From: a virus
Virus record (IMG/VR): IMGVR_UViG_3300045988_023605
Location: 1 to 19,032 of that record
Length of the DNA stretch: 19,032 nt
Direction: 5' to 3' (one strand)
The notes under the pieces were generated by a model. The model saw nothing but the letters and a program-made list of their open reading frames with translations, did no database searches and was not told the origin of the DNA. A program made the position numbers and the translations under genes. Within the stretch, counting starts at the first letter, position 1; every line of letters starts with the position of its first letter. Below are positions 2,953 to 19,032 of the stretch, in pieces.

Positions 2953-2975
2953 GCTTGCAACCCTCCTAAAAACTA

Positions 2976-3011
2976 GTGAAGGGCGTGCGCCATGACTCGC
3001 ACGCCCTTCAC
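2976..3011 (-). terminator. Strong intrinsic terminator/attenuator directly upstream of the ATPase RBS
   Basis: Perfect 14-bp stem GTGAAGGGCGTGCG-N8-CGCACGCCCTTCAC. On the minus strand it is followed by UAGUUUUUAGGAGGG, a U-run that runs into the RBS. Confidence 0.7.
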
Positions 3012-3072
3012 CAACCTATCATATGGCGGCTGTTTAAGGGGAAAGGTCATCACATAACCGCCGCCGTTATCA

Positions 3073-3086: not shown

Positions 3087-4310
3087 TTAGAATGCGGGCG
3101 GATTAGACTTGCCATCCCATACCGAAAGCAGAGAGTATGCCTGATTGTATCGCGTCGTGTACGGGCCGAACGGGAACGTGCTCAGAATATTGTTTTTAAG
3201 CTGTACGAGGTTAGACGCTTTCGGCACTTTCAAGGCATTGGCAGGCGATTGGTGATATGCGGTGATCCAAAGAATCTGCATTTTCGTGTCACTATATTCC
3301 TTTGGATATCCTGCGTAATCCTCCGCGAACTGCTTGCGCTGCCCCTCGCGCGACTCACCGCGTCCTGCCCACGTGCGGAACGCGGCCGCTTCCGCCGAAG
3401 TGAGCGAACGCTTGAACGCGCCGCCCGACTCCATGAGGGCCGCGATTTCAGGCGCGGCTGTTTTGAACGCTTCGTATCCGGTTGGATCGGCGGTTTTCAT
3501 TGCGTTGAGCACCTGCAATCGGCGCTCGAAACTCCATTGTGCGATACCAATGCCTTGCAAATTGGCCGCTTCGACTGCATCCCAGCGCAAACCGGCCTCA
3601 ACCGTGCCCACCACATATAAGGCGTAAGAGTTTTCGGGCGATATCGACGTTGAAGGATGCGCCTGTCCGTTATCGCTGGAAGGTTGGGATTGTGACGCTT
3701 TTTCCGAAAAATTGTTGGCGGTTGTCTTATAGAATATGCGAGTCCGCGTTCCGGCATTATCGCTTTCGTGCAAATAAAGGTTGTCGCCTTGCCAATGTAT
3801 CCACGCGCCACCACGTGCCGAGTCGGCGGAACCGTGACTATTGTCGCCTGTCGGATTCTTCTCCGTCGAAGTCGTGCCACCCCCTTCGCCAAGCGCTTTC
3901 GGATGCAGATACCCCAGAAACGCCGTCAAGTCGAAACTCATGCGCTGCGCTGGGTTAGGGTTTTGAGATAAGACGGTGATGCGTCCGTTATGCACGCCAT
4001 CCTCTATGACAATGCTCACGTGTGAGCCGGTGTGTTGGCTGGAAAAATTCCAAAACGCCACGTCCCCCTTGACGGGAGAATAGTCAGCGGGTTTCTTCTC
4101 GAAAATCTGCGCCATCTTCGCGCTCGTCGGGAAGCGCGTGTAGTTTCCCTCGGCGTAGCCGGTTGGCGTGATGCAGTCGGACACCGAAGCACCGTATAAG
4201 TCCATGCAGTATTTCGCCCACAAGTCCCAGCACTGTGCGCCATAGGCGCCGTCCATGTCCCAGTATCGGCCTTGCGTCTGTTTTATCCAATCATCAAAAG
4301 TAATAGCCAT
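3087..4310 (-). CDS. Tail-associated peptidoglycan hydrolase: N-terminal CHAP plus C-terminal lysozyme-like domain (functional analogue of phi29 gp13)
   Basis: The N-terminus has WDMDGAYGAQCWDLW, GDVAFW, HVSIVIED and SQNPN (CHAP). The C-terminus has VGTVEAG...GIGIAQWSFERR, which resembles phage tail-lysozyme domains. It sits at the end of the tail module. Confidence 0.85.
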   Translation of the reverse strand: MAITFDDWIKQTQGRYWDMDGAYGAQCWDLWAKYCMDLYGASVSDCITPTGYAEGNYTRFPTSAKMAQIFEKKPADYSPVKGDVAFWNFSSQHTGSHVSIVIEDGVHNGRITVLSQNPNPAQRMSFDLTAFLGYLHPKALGEGGGTTSTEKNPTGDNSHGSADSARGGAWIHWQGDNLYLHESDNAGTRTRIFYKTTANNFSEKASQSQPSSDNGQAHPSTSISPENSYALYVVGTVEAGLRWDAVEAANLQGIGIAQWSFERRLQVLNAMKTADPTGYEAFKTAAPEIAALMESGGAFKRSLTSAEAAAFRTWAGRGESREGQRKQFAEDYAGYPKEYSDTKMQILWITAYHQSPANALKVPKASNLVQLKNNILSTFPFGPYTTRYNQAYSLLSVWDGKSNPPAF

Positions 4311-7060: not shown

Positions 7061-7873
7061 CTAATGACCCAGATCGTAGGCGAGCGAGGTGGAATACAAT
7101 TGCGGCACGTTGGTCATATTGTCGCCACTGCCCCACATACCTAAAAATAGGTCTTCAAGCGAGTGAATAACCATCATGTCAATATTGAGCATGGTGTTAC
7201 GCCAATCCTGCAAAAGTTGGGATTGCGAGCCACTGGTACCGAGCGTATGCGACACGCTGTTGCCTTTGTCTGACGAATGCGAAAAATCGGTGTTGCTGGT
7301 ACTGGATGCCGTGGTGCTGCTGTCCTGCTGTGTGCTCGTATGCGTGTTGCCAGTCGAGTCGGTTTGCGACGCGCTGGTGGCGTACTGTTTAAAATCATTG
7401 ATACGAGTCTGCGGAAACTCGGAATTAAAAGTCATTGACGAATTGTCGGCCTTAGTGTCGGACGTGCTGTTCGCCGTTGACTCGTTCGACTGTGTGCCGC
7501 TCGATTTTCCGCTGGACTCGTTCGTGCTGGTCGAGTCCATTTCCTGCCGGATATCGGACGTAACGAACGGGTCAAACTTGCGCTGGGCCGACAAATACAG
7601 TTGGTTGAAATAGTCCATCTGTTCGCGCATGGTACGCCCCAGATAAAACACGAACATTTGCGGTGTTTCACTGCCGATTTCACGCAACGCATAGTGCGCC
7701 ACTATTTTTTCGTTCAGTTTCGTCCTATACGCTTCGTCGAAAATCGGGTAATACTGCGAGGATAAATGCAGTTTTTCGTCCGTGTCGAAACCGCGTGCAA
7801 TCAGATTGCCAAGCGTCAGCGTATAGTCGGCCATGCTGTCTTTGATGGCGTACATGCTTAAGTCCTGCGTCAT
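7061..7873 (-). CDS. Lower collar protein (phi29 gp11 position) with a long Ser/Thr-rich central segment
   Basis: It lies immediately downstream of the portal with an ATGA stop/start overlap. The N-terminal YALREIGSETPQMF block resembles lower-collar proteins as I recall them. About 105 residues (113-218) are S/T/N/Q-rich. Confidence 0.7.
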   Translation of the reverse strand: MTQDLSMYAIKDSMADYTLTLGNLIARGFDTDEKLHLSSQYYPIFDEAYRTKLNEKIVAHYALREIGSETPQMFVFYLGRTMREQMDYFNQLYLSAQRKFDPFVTSDIRQEMDSTSTNESSGKSSGTQSNESTANSTSDTKADNSSMTFNSEFPQTRINDFKQYATSASQTDSTGNTHTSTQQDSSTTASSTSNTDFSHSSDKGNSVSHTLGTSGSQSQLLQDWRNTMLNIDMMVIHSLEDLFLGMWGSGDNMTNVPQLYSTSLAYDLGH

Positions 7874-8814
7874 TGTTCATCCTCTTTCTTGTTGCCGTCA
7901 ACGTCCAATAATCCGCCCGAAGTCGTGTCGTTCCACTCGATGCCGATAGGTTTGCCGGAATCGGCCATTTGCGGCCATAACCGGTTAATCGTGTCACACG
8001 CCTGTTGACGTGCTTTCAGATAACTCAGACGGAAAACGTTCGTACGGGAGTTTCCAGCCGTCACTTCCGACTCAAGCAGACGCTCCTTCTTTTCCGTCGT
8101 GCTGTTATCGACGCCGAGGCAGTTGACGAGTTCGTTCCATATCTGCGCCTTGGTGGTGATGATCTTATCCGCCAAAAAGGGGGTCATGTTGGGAAATGTC
8201 TGAAACATTCCAGTAATGTCGGCAGTATCGTAGACGTAGATATATGGATCTCCGTCTTCGCGCGCCTTCATGAGGTTTTCTGCGGTGAGTTTATTGGTTT
8301 CGGACGTGGCGATAATCAGCGGCACCGAAATGTTGTCTAGGTTGACGTCAAGCGCCCTGTCCGCAATGGCGAGTCGTGTCGCGTAATTCCACATGACATC
8401 AATCATGGTGCAACGCAATTGGTTGTCCCAAATCGGCACGCACTGCTTGCTCCCAATCTGCGGATGAGAATAATTCGTGGCAACTGGCTGGAATAACGTC
8501 GGATTATTATAATTATTGACGCCGCCGATATTACCCGACGTGACCATAAAACGGTGCACACCCCTACGTTTATCGGGGAAAAAGAGCGCCAAGCCATTCT
8601 CGAATAATGTCAGTTCCAAATATCTTTCGTCGATATACGGGGGCAAATTAATCCACTTGAAACGGCTTACCGCCAACATTTCAATCAATTTCATGTATTG
8701 GTTGATTCTCAGGCTTTGCCGCATTTCGGGTAGATTGAGATTGCTCCACATCGAGCCGAGCACGCTTTGGTTATCCCAGTGCGCAGCCTTCTTCGCATTG
8801 TTGCGTTTGCTCAT
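7870..8814 (-). CDS. Portal / upper collar connector protein (phi29 gp10-like)
   Basis: Blocks collinear with phi29 gp10: FKWINLPPYIDERYLE, WNELVNCLGVDNSTTEKKERLLESEV and ARQQACDTINRLW. The ORF-track start at 8820 is GTG. I prefer the ATG at 8814 (MSKRNN...), which has AAGGA about 8 nt upstream. Confidence 0.93.
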   Translation of the reverse strand: MSKRNNAKKAAHWDNQSVLGSMWSNLNLPEMRQSLRINQYMKLIEMLAVSRFKWINLPPYIDERYLELTLFENGLALFFPDKRRGVHRFMVTSGNIGGVNNYNNPTLFQPVATNYSHPQIGSKQCVPIWDNQLRCTMIDVMWNYATRLAIADRALDVNLDNISVPLIIATSETNKLTAENLMKAREDGDPYIYVYDTADITGMFQTFPNMTPFLADKIITTKAQIWNELVNCLGVDNSTTEKKERLLESEVTAGNSRTNVFRLSYLKARQQACDTINRLWPQMADSGKPIGIEWNDTTSGGLLDVDGNKKEDEQ

Positions 8815-8836
8815 AGTCACAGTCCTTAATAATAAT

Positions 8837-13190: not shown

Positions 13191-13226
13191 GTAAGCTCCC
13201 TTCGTATTGGTCGATATTCCGTTAAA

Positions 13227-13235
13227 ATTATATCA
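13227..13235 (-). promoter_or_regulatory. Late promoter (extended -10 TGATATAAT, no convincing -35)
   Basis: The reverse complement of 13227-13235 is TGATATAAT. It lies 37 nt upstream of the scaffold ATG and directly downstream of the early terminator. Confidence 0.6.
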
Positions 13236-13244
13236 TGCGGCAGG

Positions 13245-13411
13245 AGGAATAAATGACCCTCCAATCACGGAGGGTCTGAATCGTCCTATCAGAGCGCGGA
13301 TTGATAATCGTAGGGCACTACCACCACGGTAGCAAATCATGGTCGGCGGCATTCTCAGCCGTGGCAATCCGACACGTGTCGTTCCCAGTCGAAAATCGAC
13401 GCTCACAAGAC
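13245..13411 (-). ncRNA. Candidate ~165-nt structured small RNA (possible phi29-type packaging RNA)
   Basis: There is no ORF. It has its own extended -10 box (13418-13426) and terminator (13255-13276). A 5'/3' closing helix contains strand-specific G.U pairs. There is also a bulged hairpin and a second hairpin whose loop is complementary to the bulge (details in findings). Confidence 0.45.
13255..13276 (-). terminator. Intrinsic terminator ending the early block / small-RNA unit
   Basis: GACCCTCC-N6-GGAGGGTC (8-bp perfect stem). On the minus strand it is followed by AUUUAUU. Confidence 0.75.
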
Positions 13412-13417
13412 ACAACA

Positions 13418-13426
13418 ATTATAGCA
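13418..13426 (-). promoter_or_regulatory. Extended -10 promoter TGCTATAAT overlapping the polymerase stop codon
   Basis: The reverse complement of 13418-13426 is TGCTATAAT. Its TAA (13421-13419) is the stop of the polymerase CDS. The predicted start is near G13411. Confidence 0.5.
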
Positions 13427-14870
13427 TGACCATTGTGCTGTAATCATCCATGACTTGCACACCATGTCTAAACCTTTCGTAGGGGATAGGCTGAGAAAAC
13501 ATGTTTCCGGCCATACAGACGTCCACTTCGCCGTCTTCTCTCCATCCTTGATAACGGTTCATGCCAAGTATGGTGAGTTTTTCGTATTTGGCGGCGATTT
13601 TCCATTTTCCGAGTTCGGTTGGATGTATGTCGCATGATTTCACCGGCTCCCAGCCGGATAGGATACAACCGTCCGTATTGGCGTACAGCAATCGGTCAGA
13701 GTTGGTATGGCACACGTCCATAAGCTTGCGGCGGGCGTAGGCGTTGACCCAAATTGGCACGGGCAGATAGTCGGTTTTCAGGTTCGATTCTTCACGTTGT
13801 GCGACATCCCAGTCAAGAGTTATTCCGTCTTTGGAGAGTGGGAGCATGACAGCGCCTTTTGGCAGACTCGCCATTTTGCCTACGAGAGCGTTCATGACTA
13901 GTTTTGCCATCTGCCGTTTCTCGCCCGTCGCCTTCTGTTTCATATCCCCCCATTCATCGACGAACGAACGGAAGAAACCTTTGGAGCGACGAAATTTCCA
14001 CCCCCTAACATGCTTGTAGATGCTCACGTCATAATTCCGATAAAGCAGTTCTTGGTCGATGTCGGTCAAGACACGCGTGATATATCCACGCGTTGAGGTG
14101 AGTCGGTTGAGTCCGTACACGCTGCGGTTGTCGAGTAGAAAAGGGTAGCCGTCCGGTTTGAGTTCCGCGCGAAACGTGAGTTCATCGCAATGCAACGGCA
14201 TGTCATTGTCCTGCACGTATCGCCCTTCGTATGGTTCCGGTTCGCCCCAAGGAAGCCATTTATCTCGTAATATGGACGGATACATGGAATTGCAGTCAAC
14301 GTCGATAGCCTTTCCATAAACCCCCTCTTTGACGAACATGAAACCGCCGATATAGGCGTCATGCAATGACTTTTTGATTTCGACGTCGAGTTGTGGGAAT
14401 TTGTTGTAATACCATTTCCACTCGCCGGATGCGAACGCTTCCATGCTCGCGCCGCCCGCCGTGATTTTGCATAAGCCACGGTTATTGTATTCTCGCAGGA
14501 TGTTGAGCAGTTGTGTGTCGGTCATGGTGAGACGGCAATTTTCCCGTAAAAGGTTCGATATGTCGAAGAATCGTGCGGAATTTTCGCGGTCGATACGCGC
14601 GCTAAAGCTGAAAAATTTGCCTTTTTTCGACACTATCGCATCCCAACTCAAATTAGAATTATGCTCGTTATGAGGGAGGGAGTGTACGACATGCGCGATA
14701 AACGAGTCTAGCAGTTCTGGGTCGGTCATGTAGACGATGAGTTTGCCGCCTGACATGATGGACGCCAAAAGGCGGTTAGGCGCGGTGATGTCACGCAGGA
14801 CGGTGCCGTCCGTAAAGCGTATAACGTTATCCGCACACCATAATCCCACTCTGTTATCTAGCTTGGTCAT
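13419..14870 (-). CDS. Protein-primed family-B DNA polymerase (phi29 gp2-like), compact 483 aa
   Basis: Motifs: YxGG (AYIGGF), motif A DCNSMYP, motif B KLVMNALVGK, motif C YANTDG. Long blocks are collinear with phi29 gp2: ITAGGASMEAF, LPWGEPEPYEGRYVQDNDMPLH, a TPR2-like insertion before WVNAYAR, LGKW, and a C-terminal VMDDYSTM. Confidence 0.95.
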   Translation of the reverse strand: MTKLDNRVGLWCADNVIRFTDGTVLRDITAPNRLLASIMSGGKLIVYMTDPELLDSFIAHVVHSLPHNEHNSNLSWDAIVSKKGKFFSFSARIDRENSARFFDISNLLRENCRLTMTDTQLLNILREYNNRGLCKITAGGASMEAFASGEWKWYYNKFPQLDVEIKKSLHDAYIGGFMFVKEGVYGKAIDVDCNSMYPSILRDKWLPWGEPEPYEGRYVQDNDMPLHCDELTFRAELKPDGYPFLLDNRSVYGLNRLTSTRGYITRVLTDIDQELLYRNYDVSIYKHVRGWKFRRSKGFFRSFVDEWGDMKQKATGEKRQMAKLVMNALVGKMASLPKGAVMLPLSKDGITLDWDVAQREESNLKTDYLPVPIWVNAYARRKLMDVCHTNSDRLLYANTDGCILSGWEPVKSCDIHPTELGKWKIAAKYEKLTILGMNRYQGWREDGEVDVCMAGNMFSQPIPYERFRHGVQVMDDYSTMVML

Positions 14871-14897: not shown

Positions 14898-15860
14898 CTA
14901 CTTTTCCAGTGCGCCCGCTTCCGTCATCCAACGGTCAAACTGCTTGCGGGAGCGCTGATAGCCATTACTGTTATCGCGAAATATCGATGTGAAGCCGTGG
15001 CGAACTGGGTCGTACACAGTCCAGTCGAACACGACACGGGGGGCGTCCGTCTGTTCGATAAACGCACGTTTCTGCGCGGCCGATAGTTGACGGAATCGTT
15101 TCAACCGTTTCGAGCCGAGCGTGGTGGCTAGAATCTTCTCGAACACCTCATAGCGTCCGCGACTCATGTAAGACGGCCATTCGTGTTCACCGTACAAGCC
15201 TTTATCCTGTTTGCCCGTCTTCCGCTTTTTGGACGGTTTGCGTTTCTGTTCGGTGCGCAATCCCAGTATTTCGGCGACGTCGTGCATCTGCTCAAGCAGT
15301 TCGTTACGGTGTCCGCTTTCCAGTTGGGAGCGTACGAATGCTTCGTCACTCAGCACGTTCGTCATTTGCAAAAAATCAGTGAGTTTTGACGGGATGATCT
15401 GGTTTCGTCCGAAACCTTCGCCGGTGGTGCCGGTGATTTCTGCTGCACGCTGCTCGTACACGCTTTTCGCGGGCATGGCCTGAGCCCTGTTCCATTCGTT
15501 GATTTTCCGTCGTGCCATATTGATTTTCCGCTGCTGTTGTCTGAGCAGTTTACGTCGTTTCGCCACCGGTTCCGCGTCAATCTGCGCGTTGGTGATGGGC
15601 GTGCGCTGGGCGAACATGATGTCTTTCTTCGTCGGCTTTTCTACGGCGGTGGCATGATATGGTGTTGCTTTCGCTTCCGCTATGGCCTGCTTCTTCTGCC
15701 GCTCCCACTCCTTGCCGAGCGTTTTGGCGATGTTGACCAATTGTTTGTCCGCGGTTTTGGCGAGATTAGAGCGCGAGTAGGCGCCAAGCTGCTTGATGTT
15801 GCGGGCGGCGCGTGCTTGCGCGGCTTGACGTGCCTTGACATGCTTTTGCTTCCGAGACAT
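14898..15860 (-). CDS. Putative terminal protein (replication primer)
   Basis: Positional inference only. It is a 320-aa Lys/Arg-rich protein immediately upstream of the protein-primed polymerase, as in phi29 (gene 3 then gene 2). I could not see sequence similarity to phi29 TP by eye. Confidence 0.55.
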   Translation of the reverse strand: MSRKQKHVKARQAAQARAARNIKQLGAYSRSNLAKTADKQLVNIAKTLGKEWERQKKQAIAEAKATPYHATAVEKPTKKDIMFAQRTPITNAQIDAEPVAKRRKLLRQQQRKINMARRKINEWNRAQAMPAKSVYEQRAAEITGTTGEGFGRNQIIPSKLTDFLQMTNVLSDEAFVRSQLESGHRNELLEQMHDVAEILGLRTEQKRKPSKKRKTGKQDKGLYGEHEWPSYMSRGRYEVFEKILATTLGSKRLKRFRQLSAAQKRAFIEQTDAPRVVFDWTVYDPVRHGFTSIFRDNSNGYQRSRKQFDRWMTEAGALEK

Positions 15861-15928: not shown

Positions 15929-15937
15929 ATTATAGCA
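15929..15937 (-). promoter_or_regulatory. Extended -10 promoter TGCTATAAT upstream of the terminal protein / polymerase genes
   Basis: The reverse complement of 15929-15937 is TGCTATAAT. It lies 7 nt after the SSB-like gene stop (15944-15946). Confidence 0.5.
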
Positions 15938-15943
15938 AGCTGT

Positions 15944-16381
15944 TCACTTGGTTTCCTCGTCCACCGGCTCAATGCTGAAAAACTTGAAGCCGCGGCGAGA
16001 ACGACGTTCCACCACCTTGATGCACAGCGGTTCCGTCCAAGTGTTCGGCGTGCCGAAAATACCGAACATGGTGTTAAGTCCAGCGGCGAGAGTCGGGGAG
16101 GTGGCCGCATACGCCTTATTGTCATCGGTCACGATAATGACGCGCACGGTGTTGGAGATTTCTCCCGTCTGGTCGTCGGTCACCTGCACGGCCTGCGCGA
16201 CTGCGTTCGTCATATTCAACGGCTCGTTAAGGTGTTCGTCAAGCTTTTCGGCGTTCTGCAATGCGCTGTAAAGCTTGATTTTACCTTCACGGGTGGAAGT
16301 GTCGATGAAGTGCTGGACGGTGCCGAGTTCGGTGTTTTCGGTGTTGAATGCGACGAGTGCGTTATTGTTGTTGTTTTCCAT
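15944..16381 (-). CDS. Putative single-stranded DNA-binding protein (phage SSB-like)
   Basis: 145 aa. The pattern KIKLYSAL...L...V...TGE...VRVIIVTDDNKAY.ATS...GL..MF.IFG.P..W.EPL.IKV resembles the Firmicute-phage SSB family as I recall it. It sits upstream of TP/polymerase, like phi29 gene 5. Confidence 0.5.
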   Translation of the reverse strand: MENNNNNALVAFNTENTELGTVQHFIDTSTREGKIKLYSALQNAEKLDEHLNEPLNMTNAVAQAVQVTDDQTGEISNTVRVIIVTDDNKAYAATSPTLAAGLNTMFGIFGTPNTWTEPLCIKVVERRSRRGFKFFSIEPVDEETK

Positions 16382-16437
16382 TGTTTAACCTTTCCTAGAT
16401 TGTTTTTGTTTTGTTTTCAGGCTTGCGCCTAAAATCT

Positions 16438-18448: not shown

Positions 18449-18679
18449 TTATTCACCCCTCCTATTTGCATGATAATAATCAACGGAACCATCCGTCCGC
18501 CAATACTTCAGATTAGACAATTCCACGCCCGTCTCCCTACGAAGCTCACGACGCATACGCTCCTTCGCACCCTTGACGGTAACGACGTTGCCCAACGAGA
18601 AATAGTGCGCGTTATTGTGGTCAGTGAATGCCACTGTGATGAACTTGTTCCACCAATCAAACGAAACAACGGTGTTCAT
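18449..18679 (-). CDS. Hypothetical early protein (76 aa), first gene of the right-end early block
   Basis: Its promoter, RBS and ATG(A) lie inside the right ITR and are identical to those of 354..611. Confidence 0.7.
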   Translation of the reverse strand: MNTVVSFDWWNKFITVAFTDHNNAHYFSLGNVVTVKGAKERMRRELRRETGVELSNLKYWRTDGSVDYYHANRRGE

Positions 18680-18706
18680 TTTATTTCCTTTCCCTTGAAC
18701 TTGATA

Positions 18707-18720
18707 GTTATATCATAACA
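18707..18720 (-). promoter_or_regulatory. Inward early promoter in the right ITR (extended -10)
   Basis: Mirror copy of 313-326. It drives the minus-strand early block starting at ATG 18679. Confidence 0.6.
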
Positions 18721-18896
18721 CAAACAAAACAACGACACGCCCGAAAACAAAACAAAGCAAAAAAATAAAAGACAACCACAGAACGGCCGATAGCTACGGT
18801 TACGTAACCGTAACCTAGCCGAACGCAGATTGTTGCATATACAACCATTGACACAGTGTCAATAAAAAAAAACGACACGCCCGAAAATAAAAAAAC

Positions 18897-18925
18897 TTGA
18901 CAGGCAAGCGCAAAAAAAATATAAT
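18897..18925 (+). promoter_or_regulatory. Outward-facing consensus promoter TTGACA-17 nt-TATAAT (right ITR copy)
   Basis: Mirror copy of 108-136. TTGACA is at 18897-18902 and TATAAT at 18920-18925. It points at the right genome end. Confidence 0.6.
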
Positions 18926-19032
18926 AGAGGCGTAAACAAAACAAAGCGTCAACGGAGACGCAGAACAAAAAAAAATAATACACAAATAAAAAAAACCACA
19001 AGGGAAAATCTTCACACAAACCCACACCCCTC

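Follow-up and report, generated by a model that had tools for sequence, protein, structure and literature searches.

The stretch of DNA that was analysed, in the following called the window, comprises the 19,032 bp of the virus record IMGVR_UViG_3300045988_023605. It has perfect 357-bp inverted terminal repeats (ITRs) at 1-357 and 18676-19032, and therefore it represents a whole linear genome. Its nearest relatives, with identities of 76-80%, are the Bifidobacterium phages BP1 and BD811P1-3 and one human-faecal contig. All major genes are carried by the minus strand. According to the BP1 annotation, small early genes, an SSB gene and a terminal-protein-sized gene are followed by the DNA polymerase gene (13419-14870) and a gap of 228 nt. 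After the gap, the genes for a 93-aa acidic protein, the major capsid protein, the tail, portal, adaptor and tail enzymes are found, and then those for an endolysin, the packaging ATPase, the holin and an endolysin. As had been claimed in a first-pass annotation of this DNA, the portal and the packaging ATPase are homologues of gp10 and gp16 of phage phi29, respectively (portal: 27% identity, E 2e-32; ATPase: 27.8% identity, 95% of the length covered, E 1e-34). The same annotation had proposed that the gap contains the gene of a prohead or packaging RNA (pRNA), and this candidate RNA is the subject of the present analysis.

The RNA unit extends from promoter to terminator over about 165 nt (13411->13247, minus strand), with the gene of the DNA polymerase on one side and the head genes on the other. 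Its start is predicted at G13411, 7 nt downstream of an extended -10 box (13426->13418) that overlaps the polymerase stop codon. This upstream box was kept as TGYTATRAT in 88 of 89 distinct relatives, and the 5-7 nt separating it from GUCUU vary freely among them. At the other end, the hairpin 13276->13255 with the adjoining AUUUAUU was the top terminator-like site on the coding strand, and a second extended -10 box (13227..13235) forms the 3' border of the unit; TGRTATRAT was found downstream in 84 of the 89 relatives. The genome contains three TGNTATAAT sites (0.5 expected), all of them on the coding strand, and two of the three flank the RNA unit. Thus, the promoter over the polymerase stop, the terminator and the late promoter just after the unit, all three named in the first-pass annotation, are borne out by the relatives, and its remaining elements, namely a closing helix, two hairpins and a complementarity between GCCA and UGGU, were likewise located where it had placed them. 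The claim that the gap is free of open reading frames (ORFs) stood only in part. A mechanical 61-aa ORF with a TTG start (13233..13418) does span the gap, but it is not conserved: stops occur in all three sense frames in 57 of the 89 relatives, and the lengths are spread evenly over modulo 3. Therefore, the gap is non-coding, and a protein-coding role of this ORF was rejected. The elements of the unit and of its fold, in RNA sense, are:

13426->13418, minus strand: extended -10 box TGCTATAAT, promoter of the RNA gene; contains the polymerase stop codon as TAA (13421-13419)
13411-13283, minus strand: domain I, 129 nt, closed by pairing of its own 5' and 3' ends
13411-13405 with 13289-13283, minus strand: A1 helix, GUCUUGU with AUAGGAC
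13404-13399 with 13297-13292, minus strand: A2 helix, GAGCGU with GCGCUC
13291-13290, minus strand: 2-nt bulge UG in the 3' strand of the A helix, between A1 and A2
13302-13298, minus strand: internal-loop bases AAUCC, between A2 and A3, 3' side
13397-13390 with 13310-13303, minus strand: A3 helix, GAUUUUCG with CGAUUAUC; U.U or U-A positions in tandem at its centre
13386-13384 with 13315-13313, minus strand: A4 helix, GGG with CCC
13315-13303, minus strand: 3' strand of the inner A helix, CCC, UA and CGAUUAUC
Between A and C, minus strand: A-to-C junction AACGA
13378-13376 with 13340-13338, minus strand: C extension, 3 bp, CAC with AUG
13374-13369 with 13346-13341, minus strand: C helix, UGUCGG with CCGACC
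13368-13362, minus strand: one-sided 5' bulge AUUGCCA
13365-13362, minus strand: GCCA, the last four bulge bases beside the E helix, proposed interlocking ('right-hand') loop bases
13361-13358 with 13350-13347, minus strand: E helix, 4 bp, CGGC with GCCG
13357-13351, minus strand: E loop UGAGAAU; UGA[GA]AA[UC] is almost invariant
Between C and D, minus strand: C-to-D junction AUU
13334-13328, 13327-13323 and 13322-13316, minus strand: D hairpin, 7 bp, UGCUACC, loop GUGGU, GGUAGUG
13326-13323, minus strand: UGGU, D loop partner of GCCA
13282-13277, minus strand: single-stranded linker GAUUCA from domain I to the 3' hairpin, variable in sequence
13276->13247, minus strand: 3' hairpin GACCCUCC-GUGAUU-GGAGGGUC with AUUUAUU, intrinsic terminator, possible 'domain II'
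13235->13227, minus strand: TGATATAAT, the second extended -10 box; from here the late (head/tail) operon, with its start at ATG 13190, is presumably transcribed

Conservation and covariation of the RNA unit

The same gap, with a length of 227-230 nt, was found in five GenBank relatives. A polymerase-based scan of viral contigs yielded 78 loci, all with the element directly 3' of the polymerase stop, and more loci, some of them clearly divergent, came from further scans of viral, genome and metagenome collections; locus searches with the polymerases of BadAztec4 and L077 returned near-identical contigs only. R1, a covariance model derived from the first alignment, detected exactly one copy in the window (184 bits). 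About 145 related loci likewise had one copy each, and in all of them it followed the polymerase stop directly. Every related contig that retains the region after the polymerase has the RNA unit (about 145 R1 matches), and the group of Bifidobacterium phages with the RNA comprises human-gut, sewage and honeybee-gut lineages with more than 140 contigs.

Compensatory changes were already visible in an alignment of six phages with a mean column identity of 83%. Two larger alignments were analysed, an unfitted MAFFT alignment of 79 distinct sequences (alignment A2) and a model-fitted alignment of 89 distinct sequences that included the divergent clades (alignment A5), and slid controls were obtained by moving the 3' partners by 1-3 columns. 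In the unfitted alignment 95.6% of the cells were paired, compared with 37-49% in the slid controls, 25 pairs had changes on both sides, compared with 5-8, and none of 500 shuffles equalled any of the observed measures. The fitted alignment, which is biased towards structure by the fitting, gave the same answer as the unbiased one, with 93.4% of the cells paired (34-48% in the controls) and compensatory changes in 39 of 55 pairs (10-15 in the controls).

The following values refer to the fitted alignment. Double changes were found in every helix, the exception being A4, whose three G-C pairs showed none in the main clade. The outer A helix (A1 and A2, helix 1) was paired in 97% of the cells and had double changes at 7 of 12 pairs; for example, the G-C of columns 20-141 is replaced by A-U or C-G, and the U.G of columns 11-151 by U-A, C-G or G-C. 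In the inner A helix the pairs 24-130, 28-126, 29-125, 35-120 and 36-119 covary, and in its 3' strand GUGCCCUAC-GA is near-invariant among the relatives. The helices of the C/E arm (helices 4, 5 and 7) all covary, and CGGC/GCCG of the E helix has become CACC/GGUG in the L206 clade. The D hairpin (helix 8) was paired in 99.8% of the cells and had double changes at all seven of its pairs; it abuts A4 with zero unpaired bases between them. Double changes were also found at 7 of the 8 pairs of the terminator stem (helix 9). In contrast to this freely covarying stem, the terminator loop G[UC]GAUU (13263-13268) was conserved in all displayed rows of the alignment and also in L171 (GUGAUU) and L090 (GAGAUU), and therefore the 3' hairpin is probably more than a terminator, e.g., a protein-binding 'domain II'.

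Compensatory changes thus occur in the closing helix, in both hairpins and in the terminator of the first-pass annotation. Two details of its fold had to be revised: the second hairpin, which is present and covaries, has a stem of 7 bp instead of 5 bp, and what had been taken for two extra small hairpins is better read as an interrupted A helix (A3, A4) plus the 3-bp C extension. A local hairpin GUCGA-UUU-UCGAC (13399-13387) was backed by one relative, L080, and was rejected; the long-range A3 pairing was adopted instead, because it is supported by the L206/L210, L093, L172 and L077 clades. L210, a divergent relative, forms A3 with perfect pairing over 8 bp (GUCGCGUG/CACGCGAC). RNAalifold independently gave the same helices as well as the long-range pairing that was first taken for a local hairpin. 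The middle of A3 (13392-13394 with 13305-13307; columns 25-27/127-129) has three tandem U.U oppositions in most relatives and Watson-Crick pairs instead in the divergent clades; this U.U-rich part may serve as a flexible hinge or may bind a protein or a metal.

The pairing had been predicted to be strand specific, and this was confirmed by the relatives: on the minus strand G.U cells were far more frequent than A.C cells (355 versus 67), and the share of canonical pairs was 93.4%, compared with 87.6% for the other strand. Therefore, the RNA is a minus-strand transcript. Single-sequence folding did not identify the strand, as the minimum free energy z-scores of the two strands were -2.76 and -2.67. 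Taken together, the comparative sequence analysis makes it nearly certain that a structured RNA gene is present at 13411->13247.

The complementarity between the 5' bulge and the D loop, on which the first-pass annotation had based part of its proposal, was followed through the same 89 sequences. The first pair (columns 61-109) was G-C in 62 sequences, G.U in 15 and A-U in 12, and it was never unpaired. The two middle pairs were C-G, four being U.G, and the fourth pair was A-U in 72 sequences, G.U in 9 and mismatched in 8. Overall, 97.8% of the cells were paired, and across the family the four bulge bases (GCCA) stay complementary to the four bases of the D loop (UGGU or UGGC). Parsimony on a neighbour-joining tree indicated about six changes of the bulge base and about eight of the loop base, with A never opposite C; the G-C, G.U and A-U states of the first pair were reached through about 11 inferred changes, and in the L077 clade even close relatives differ as A-U versus G-C. 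The predicted covariation of 13365-13362 with 13326-13323 was thus recovered, and such covariation would be expected as the signature of a selected pairing.

The element was also traced in distant clades using a broader covariance model (R2). Full-length matches directly after the polymerase stop were obtained for L090 (Bifidobacterium metagenome-assembled genome contig CALNAE010000010.1; 28.5 bits, E 2e-5), the polymerase of which is 36% identical to that of the window, and for L171 (15.2 bits, E 0.037). Weak matches at the expected position were found in the honeybee-gut BadAztec-like contigs L218 (13.8 bits, E 0.084) and L221 (12.1 bits, E 0.22). These distant elements also begin about 7 nt past a -10 box that overlaps the polymerase stop, and they have a long covarying A helix. 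The D loop GUGGU is the same in BadAztec4, in L218-L221 and in L171; for L090, a single sequence was not enough to resolve the D arm. Several likenesses to phi29, which were noticed by eye in few sequences and are thus leads rather than tests, were found: in BadAztec4 and L171 the bulge ends with AAACC beside helix E, as in phi29, and L090 has a hairpin CCGA-UUGAGU-UCGG (3914-3927), the loop and flanking GA...UC of which equal those of the phi29 E hairpin (CUGA-UUGAGU-UCAG). The 3' hairpin loops mentioned above lie at 3122-3135 in L171 and at 3993-4005 in L090. In the inspected loci of the still more distant gut clade L228-L250, with polymerases 28-30% identical to that of L090, an ORF of 116-118 aa directly follows the polymerase, and there is no gap. 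L225 has a gap of 176 nt (2725-2900) after the polymerase.

A candidate packaging RNA and its rivals

We consider it likely that the RNA is the highly divergent pRNA counterpart of a phi29-like Bifidobacterium phage. A packaging role is suggested by the architecture of the RNA and by its gene context, and the RNA probably works like a pRNA and is a very distant homologue. This interpretation of the first-pass annotation gained support from the order and the lengths of the helices, the side on which the bulge lies and its position, and the size of the D loop, which correspond nearly one-to-one to the Rfam consensus of the pRNA family. Transcription would start at or next to G13411 from the conserved extended -10 promoter and would end about 165 nt further on, at the hairpin and U-tract. 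By analogy to phi29, the bulge and the loop of neighbouring RNA molecules would pair, so that a ring of five or six copies would arise on the portal vertex of empty proheads. With its invariant E loop, the C/E/D region would hold the ring on the portal and the capsid, while the long A helices, which are conserved in sequence, would project outward and dock the gp16-type ATPase. The docked ATPase would then pump the protein-primed linear genome into the head, and the RNA would depart before tail attachment.

Several observations weigh against this interpretation. The Rfam pRNA model RF00044 ('Phage_pRNA'), which scored 145.4 bits with phi29 pRNA as a control, had no match in the window or in the 206-nt region 13225-13430, even at E<=10, and thus the search that the first-pass annotation had suggested came out negative. 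It also had no pRNA match in BadAztec4, Actinomyces phage Av-1, L171, L219, L090, L210 and L077. Rfam scans of the window with the gathering threshold and at E<=10 gave only chance-level matches, i.e., Hatchet with E 0.97 and two miRNA models. Conversely, R1 and R2 had no match to phi29 pRNA and gave nothing above noise on phi29 and Av-1. The A helix does not have the CCA bulge of phi29 and instead contains a 2-nt bulge in its 3' strand (13291-13290) and U-rich internal loops; the absence of the CCA bulge weighs little, because it is specific for phi29 and its close kin. As RF00044 scores nothing, R1 and R2 miss phi29 and the CCA bulge is absent, membership in the sequence family RF00044 fails, and homology with the Bacillus pRNAs is argued from architecture and not from a scored alignment, because the models score in neither direction. 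In addition, the fourth position of the bulge-loop pairing was mismatched in 8 of the 89 sequences, and judged from sequence the pairing fits an intermolecular kiss and an internal pseudoknot alike. Lastly, the distant clades (BadAztec4, L171, L090) lack both a U-tract at the 3' hairpin and a second promoter behind it. Unless the RNA is processed there, or ended by a termination that needs no U-tract, it could form the 5' leader of the late mRNA.

The last point leads to the explanation that the element is a cis-acting leader or attenuator at the early-late boundary, in which the folded domain and the terminator hairpin together would control read-through into the late genes, whether transcription comes from the polymerase operon or starts at the element's own promoter, and which would have no role in the motor; riboswitches, attenuators that depend on a protein and antitermination RNAs would be models for its action. 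Its terminator fits this explanation, and so does its place at the exact junction of the early and late genes, which share its strand. The same holds for BadAztec4, L171 and L090, where the hairpin without U-tract leads straight to the first late gene's ribosome-binding site. However, in the clade of the window a separate conserved late promoter follows the terminator (84 of 89), and therefore late expression can do without read-through. The longest complementary run between the 5' arm of the terminator and domain I was 4.5 nt, compared with 5.1 nt in shuffles, and no antiterminator was found; no Rfam riboswitch or leader family matched the window or the 206-nt region; and the conserved bulge/D-loop complementarity and the pRNA geometry would have no role in an attenuator. 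All in all, a leader or attenuator appears rather improbable. It would also be possible that the phage produces a trans-acting small RNA with another job, e.g., a host-factor decoy, a regulator of replication or transcription or an anti-defence RNA, with an internal pseudoknot and a likeness to pRNA that is convergent. The structure is solid and the function is inferred only, neither the Rfam model nor R1 and R2 link the RNA by score to Bacillus pRNAs, and the similar lengths of the C arm (9 bp) and the D arm (7 bp) are compatible with folding back into an internal kiss. Yet the arm lengths are also equal in phi29 pRNA, where the pairing is intermolecular (PMC5066667), and relatives have phi29-like E-loop and bulge sequences. 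Convergence would need many coincidences, in the helix order, the side of the bulge, the position of the kissing bases, the length of the E helix, the size of the D loop and the coaxial D/A junction, and also in the linker with its putative 3' domain, the place after the early operon and the exclusive occurrence in phages with a gp10/gp16 motor. Such a small RNA is therefore regarded as unlikely.

Far less plausible than these is the assumption that no RNA gene exists at all and that the gap contains a conserved DNA-level signal, such as a replication or packaging site, or a small protein. It could draw on the 61-aa mechanical ORF across the gap and on the 83% column identity among the six phages. 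However, the closed sense frames in 57 of 89 relatives and indels that do not come in threes contradict a protein, the variation follows base pairing with the strong excess of G.U over A.C, and the folded part lies exactly between promoter and terminator. A DNA-level signal and a small protein are excluded by the G.U bias together with the analysis of the ORF, and this explanation is considered to be extremely improbable. For the pRNA counterpart, the claim is directly testable, because BP1 and BD811P1-3 are cultured phages.

Further features of the genome

The first-pass annotation had named a clearly better pRNA candidate elsewhere in the genome as a finding that would count against it, and none was found. 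Each ITR contains a promoter with a 12 of 12 consensus match, TTGACA-17-TATAAT (136->108, minus strand; mirror copy at 18897-18925, plus strand), which faces the genome end. A rival pRNA at the genome ends, i.e., at a phi29-like place, was considered and rejected, as the run-off RNA of the outward ITR promoter would be about 100 nt long, A-rich and unstructured (-11 kcal/mol).

The third TGNTATAAT site (TGCTATAAT) is located at 15929-15937 on the minus strand, between an SSB-like ORF and the terminal-protein-sized ORF 14898-15860, and is probably another promoter of the class that flanks the RNA unit. A strong GC-rich hairpin, GAAGGGCGUGCG...CGCACGCCCUUC (2967-3021), lies in the 135 nt that separate the endolysin gene from the packaging ATPase gene; it surfaced as a chance-level miRNA match (E 6.6) and may be a terminator or a regulatory hairpin. 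The N terminus of the portal (7870-8820), as called from a GTG start, is MSKRNNAKKAAHW; this basic stretch resembles MARKRSNTYR of phi29 gp10, a likeness that is only suggestive. The RKR of phi29 gp10 has been reported to be in contact with pRNA.

Comparison with phi29 pRNA and other systems

The window shares with phi29 the type of phage, i.e., a protein-primed podophage of about 19 kb with a gp10-type portal and a gp16-type ATPase. In phi29 the pRNA gene has its own promoter, its position at the end of the early (replication) region is described in PMC6266182, and the phi29 map shows it on the strand of the polymerase operon and downstream of this operon. The RNA gene of the window likewise has its own promoter, follows the early replication operon and lies on the polymerase strand. 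A different genomic place than in phi29, as had been noted in the first-pass annotation, is thus not a fitting description, since both RNA genes follow the early replication operon on the same strand; what differs is the surroundings, as the gene of the window is found mid-genome, immediately ahead of the late genes in a unidirectional genome, and that of phi29 near a genome end. The hosts also differ, being an actinobacterium for the phage of the window and Bacillus for phi29, PZA, B103/Nf/M2, SF5, GA-1 and their relatives.

The RNA itself was compared with the RF00044 consensus structure. Both RNAs have the same order of elements, i.e., A, C with a 5' bulge, E, C', D and A', and the bracket topology of the consensus of the fitted alignment at the three-way junction of A, C/E and D equals that of the RF00044 structure line. 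The C helix has 9 bp with one interruption in both, the E helix 4 bp, the C-to-D junction 3 nt, and the D loop 5 nt with the kissing bases at positions 2-5; between D and A there are 0 unpaired nt. The bulge has 9 nt in phi29 and 7 nt in the window, and in both cases the kissing four bases, which covary, form its 3' end beside E. The E loops are UUGAGU in phi29 and UGAGAAU in the window and both contain UGAG, and the D helix has 6 bp in phi29 and 7 bp in the window. Domain I, which is closed by a 5'/3' A helix in both, comprises 129 nt in the window and about 117-120 nt in phi29-type pRNAs, and the length of the whole RNA is about 165-174 nt across the two. In pRNA, domain I is followed by a single-stranded linker and a conserved 3' domain (PMC5066667), for which the 6-nt linker and the 3' hairpin with its invariant GUGAUU loop and covarying stem may be the counterpart in the window; this is one hairpin doubling as terminator, whereas domain II of phi29 consists of two helices, B and F. 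Further differences are found in the A helix, which has four segments, a U.U-rich internal loop and a 2-nt bulge in the 3' strand, compared with a CCA bulge in the 5' strand in phi29, and in the A-to-C junction, which is A-rich with 5 nt in the window and U-rich in phi29.

In reviews, pRNA is described as unique to the phi29-like Bacillus phages (PMC5066667; PMC11476376, 2024). What role exactly pRNA plays within the motor is still debated. An Infernal survey from 2025 added 12 pRNAs and does not mention Bifidobacterium (PMC12670572), and the annotated records of the Bifidobacterium phages BP1 and BD811P1-3 contain no RNA gene in the gap after the polymerase. It seems fairly likely that an RNA-dependent packaging motor is not peculiar to Bacillus phages and that a true, very divergent pRNA exists in a large group of phi29-like Bifidobacterium phages. 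If this is true, the RNA ring would be an ancestral part of the packaging motor, common to phages of Firmicutes and Actinobacteria. A second family with the same architecture, unrelated in sequence and from another bacterial phylum, would bear on the question of whether the RNA is ancestral or acquired. It would also separate required features (candidates are the lengths of the arms, the place of the kissing bases, the E loop and the D/A stacking) from phi29-specific ones, among them the CCA bulge and the U-rich junction. If a true pRNA is present, its workings could be studied on dozens of naturally occurring versions of the interlocking loops, the three-way junction and the A helix, and the about 90 natural sequence variants would serve mechanistic as well as nanotechnology work. 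In addition, an essential gene that was left unannotated, also in BP1 and BD811P1-3, would be added to the Bifidobacterium phage genomes.

Packaging RNAs have been predicted before for two phages with hosts other than Bacillus. For the phi29-like Streptococcus phage Cp-1 (cited in PMC6266182) the prediction was based on single-sequence folding, and the same is true for Actinomyces phage Av-1 (NC_009643, L086), which has an actinobacterial host and a GenBank misc_RNA feature 'packaging RNA' at 16295-16402. Neither prediction was backed by the models used here; the Av-1 feature overlaps two ORFs on the opposite strand and had no match with RF00044, R1 or R2. In contrast, the RNA of the window has covariation in about 90 distinct sequences, and from the comparative sequence evidence it is best read as the first pRNA counterpart with strong comparative support outside the Bacillus phages. 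Short Watson-Crick pairing between loops is also known from the HIV-1 dimer initiation site (DIS) and from ColE1 RNA I/II, but these form dimers or antisense pairs. In the RNA of the window, a bulge and a hairpin loop of one type of molecule are mutually complementary, and this is the arrangement that gives closed rings in pRNA.

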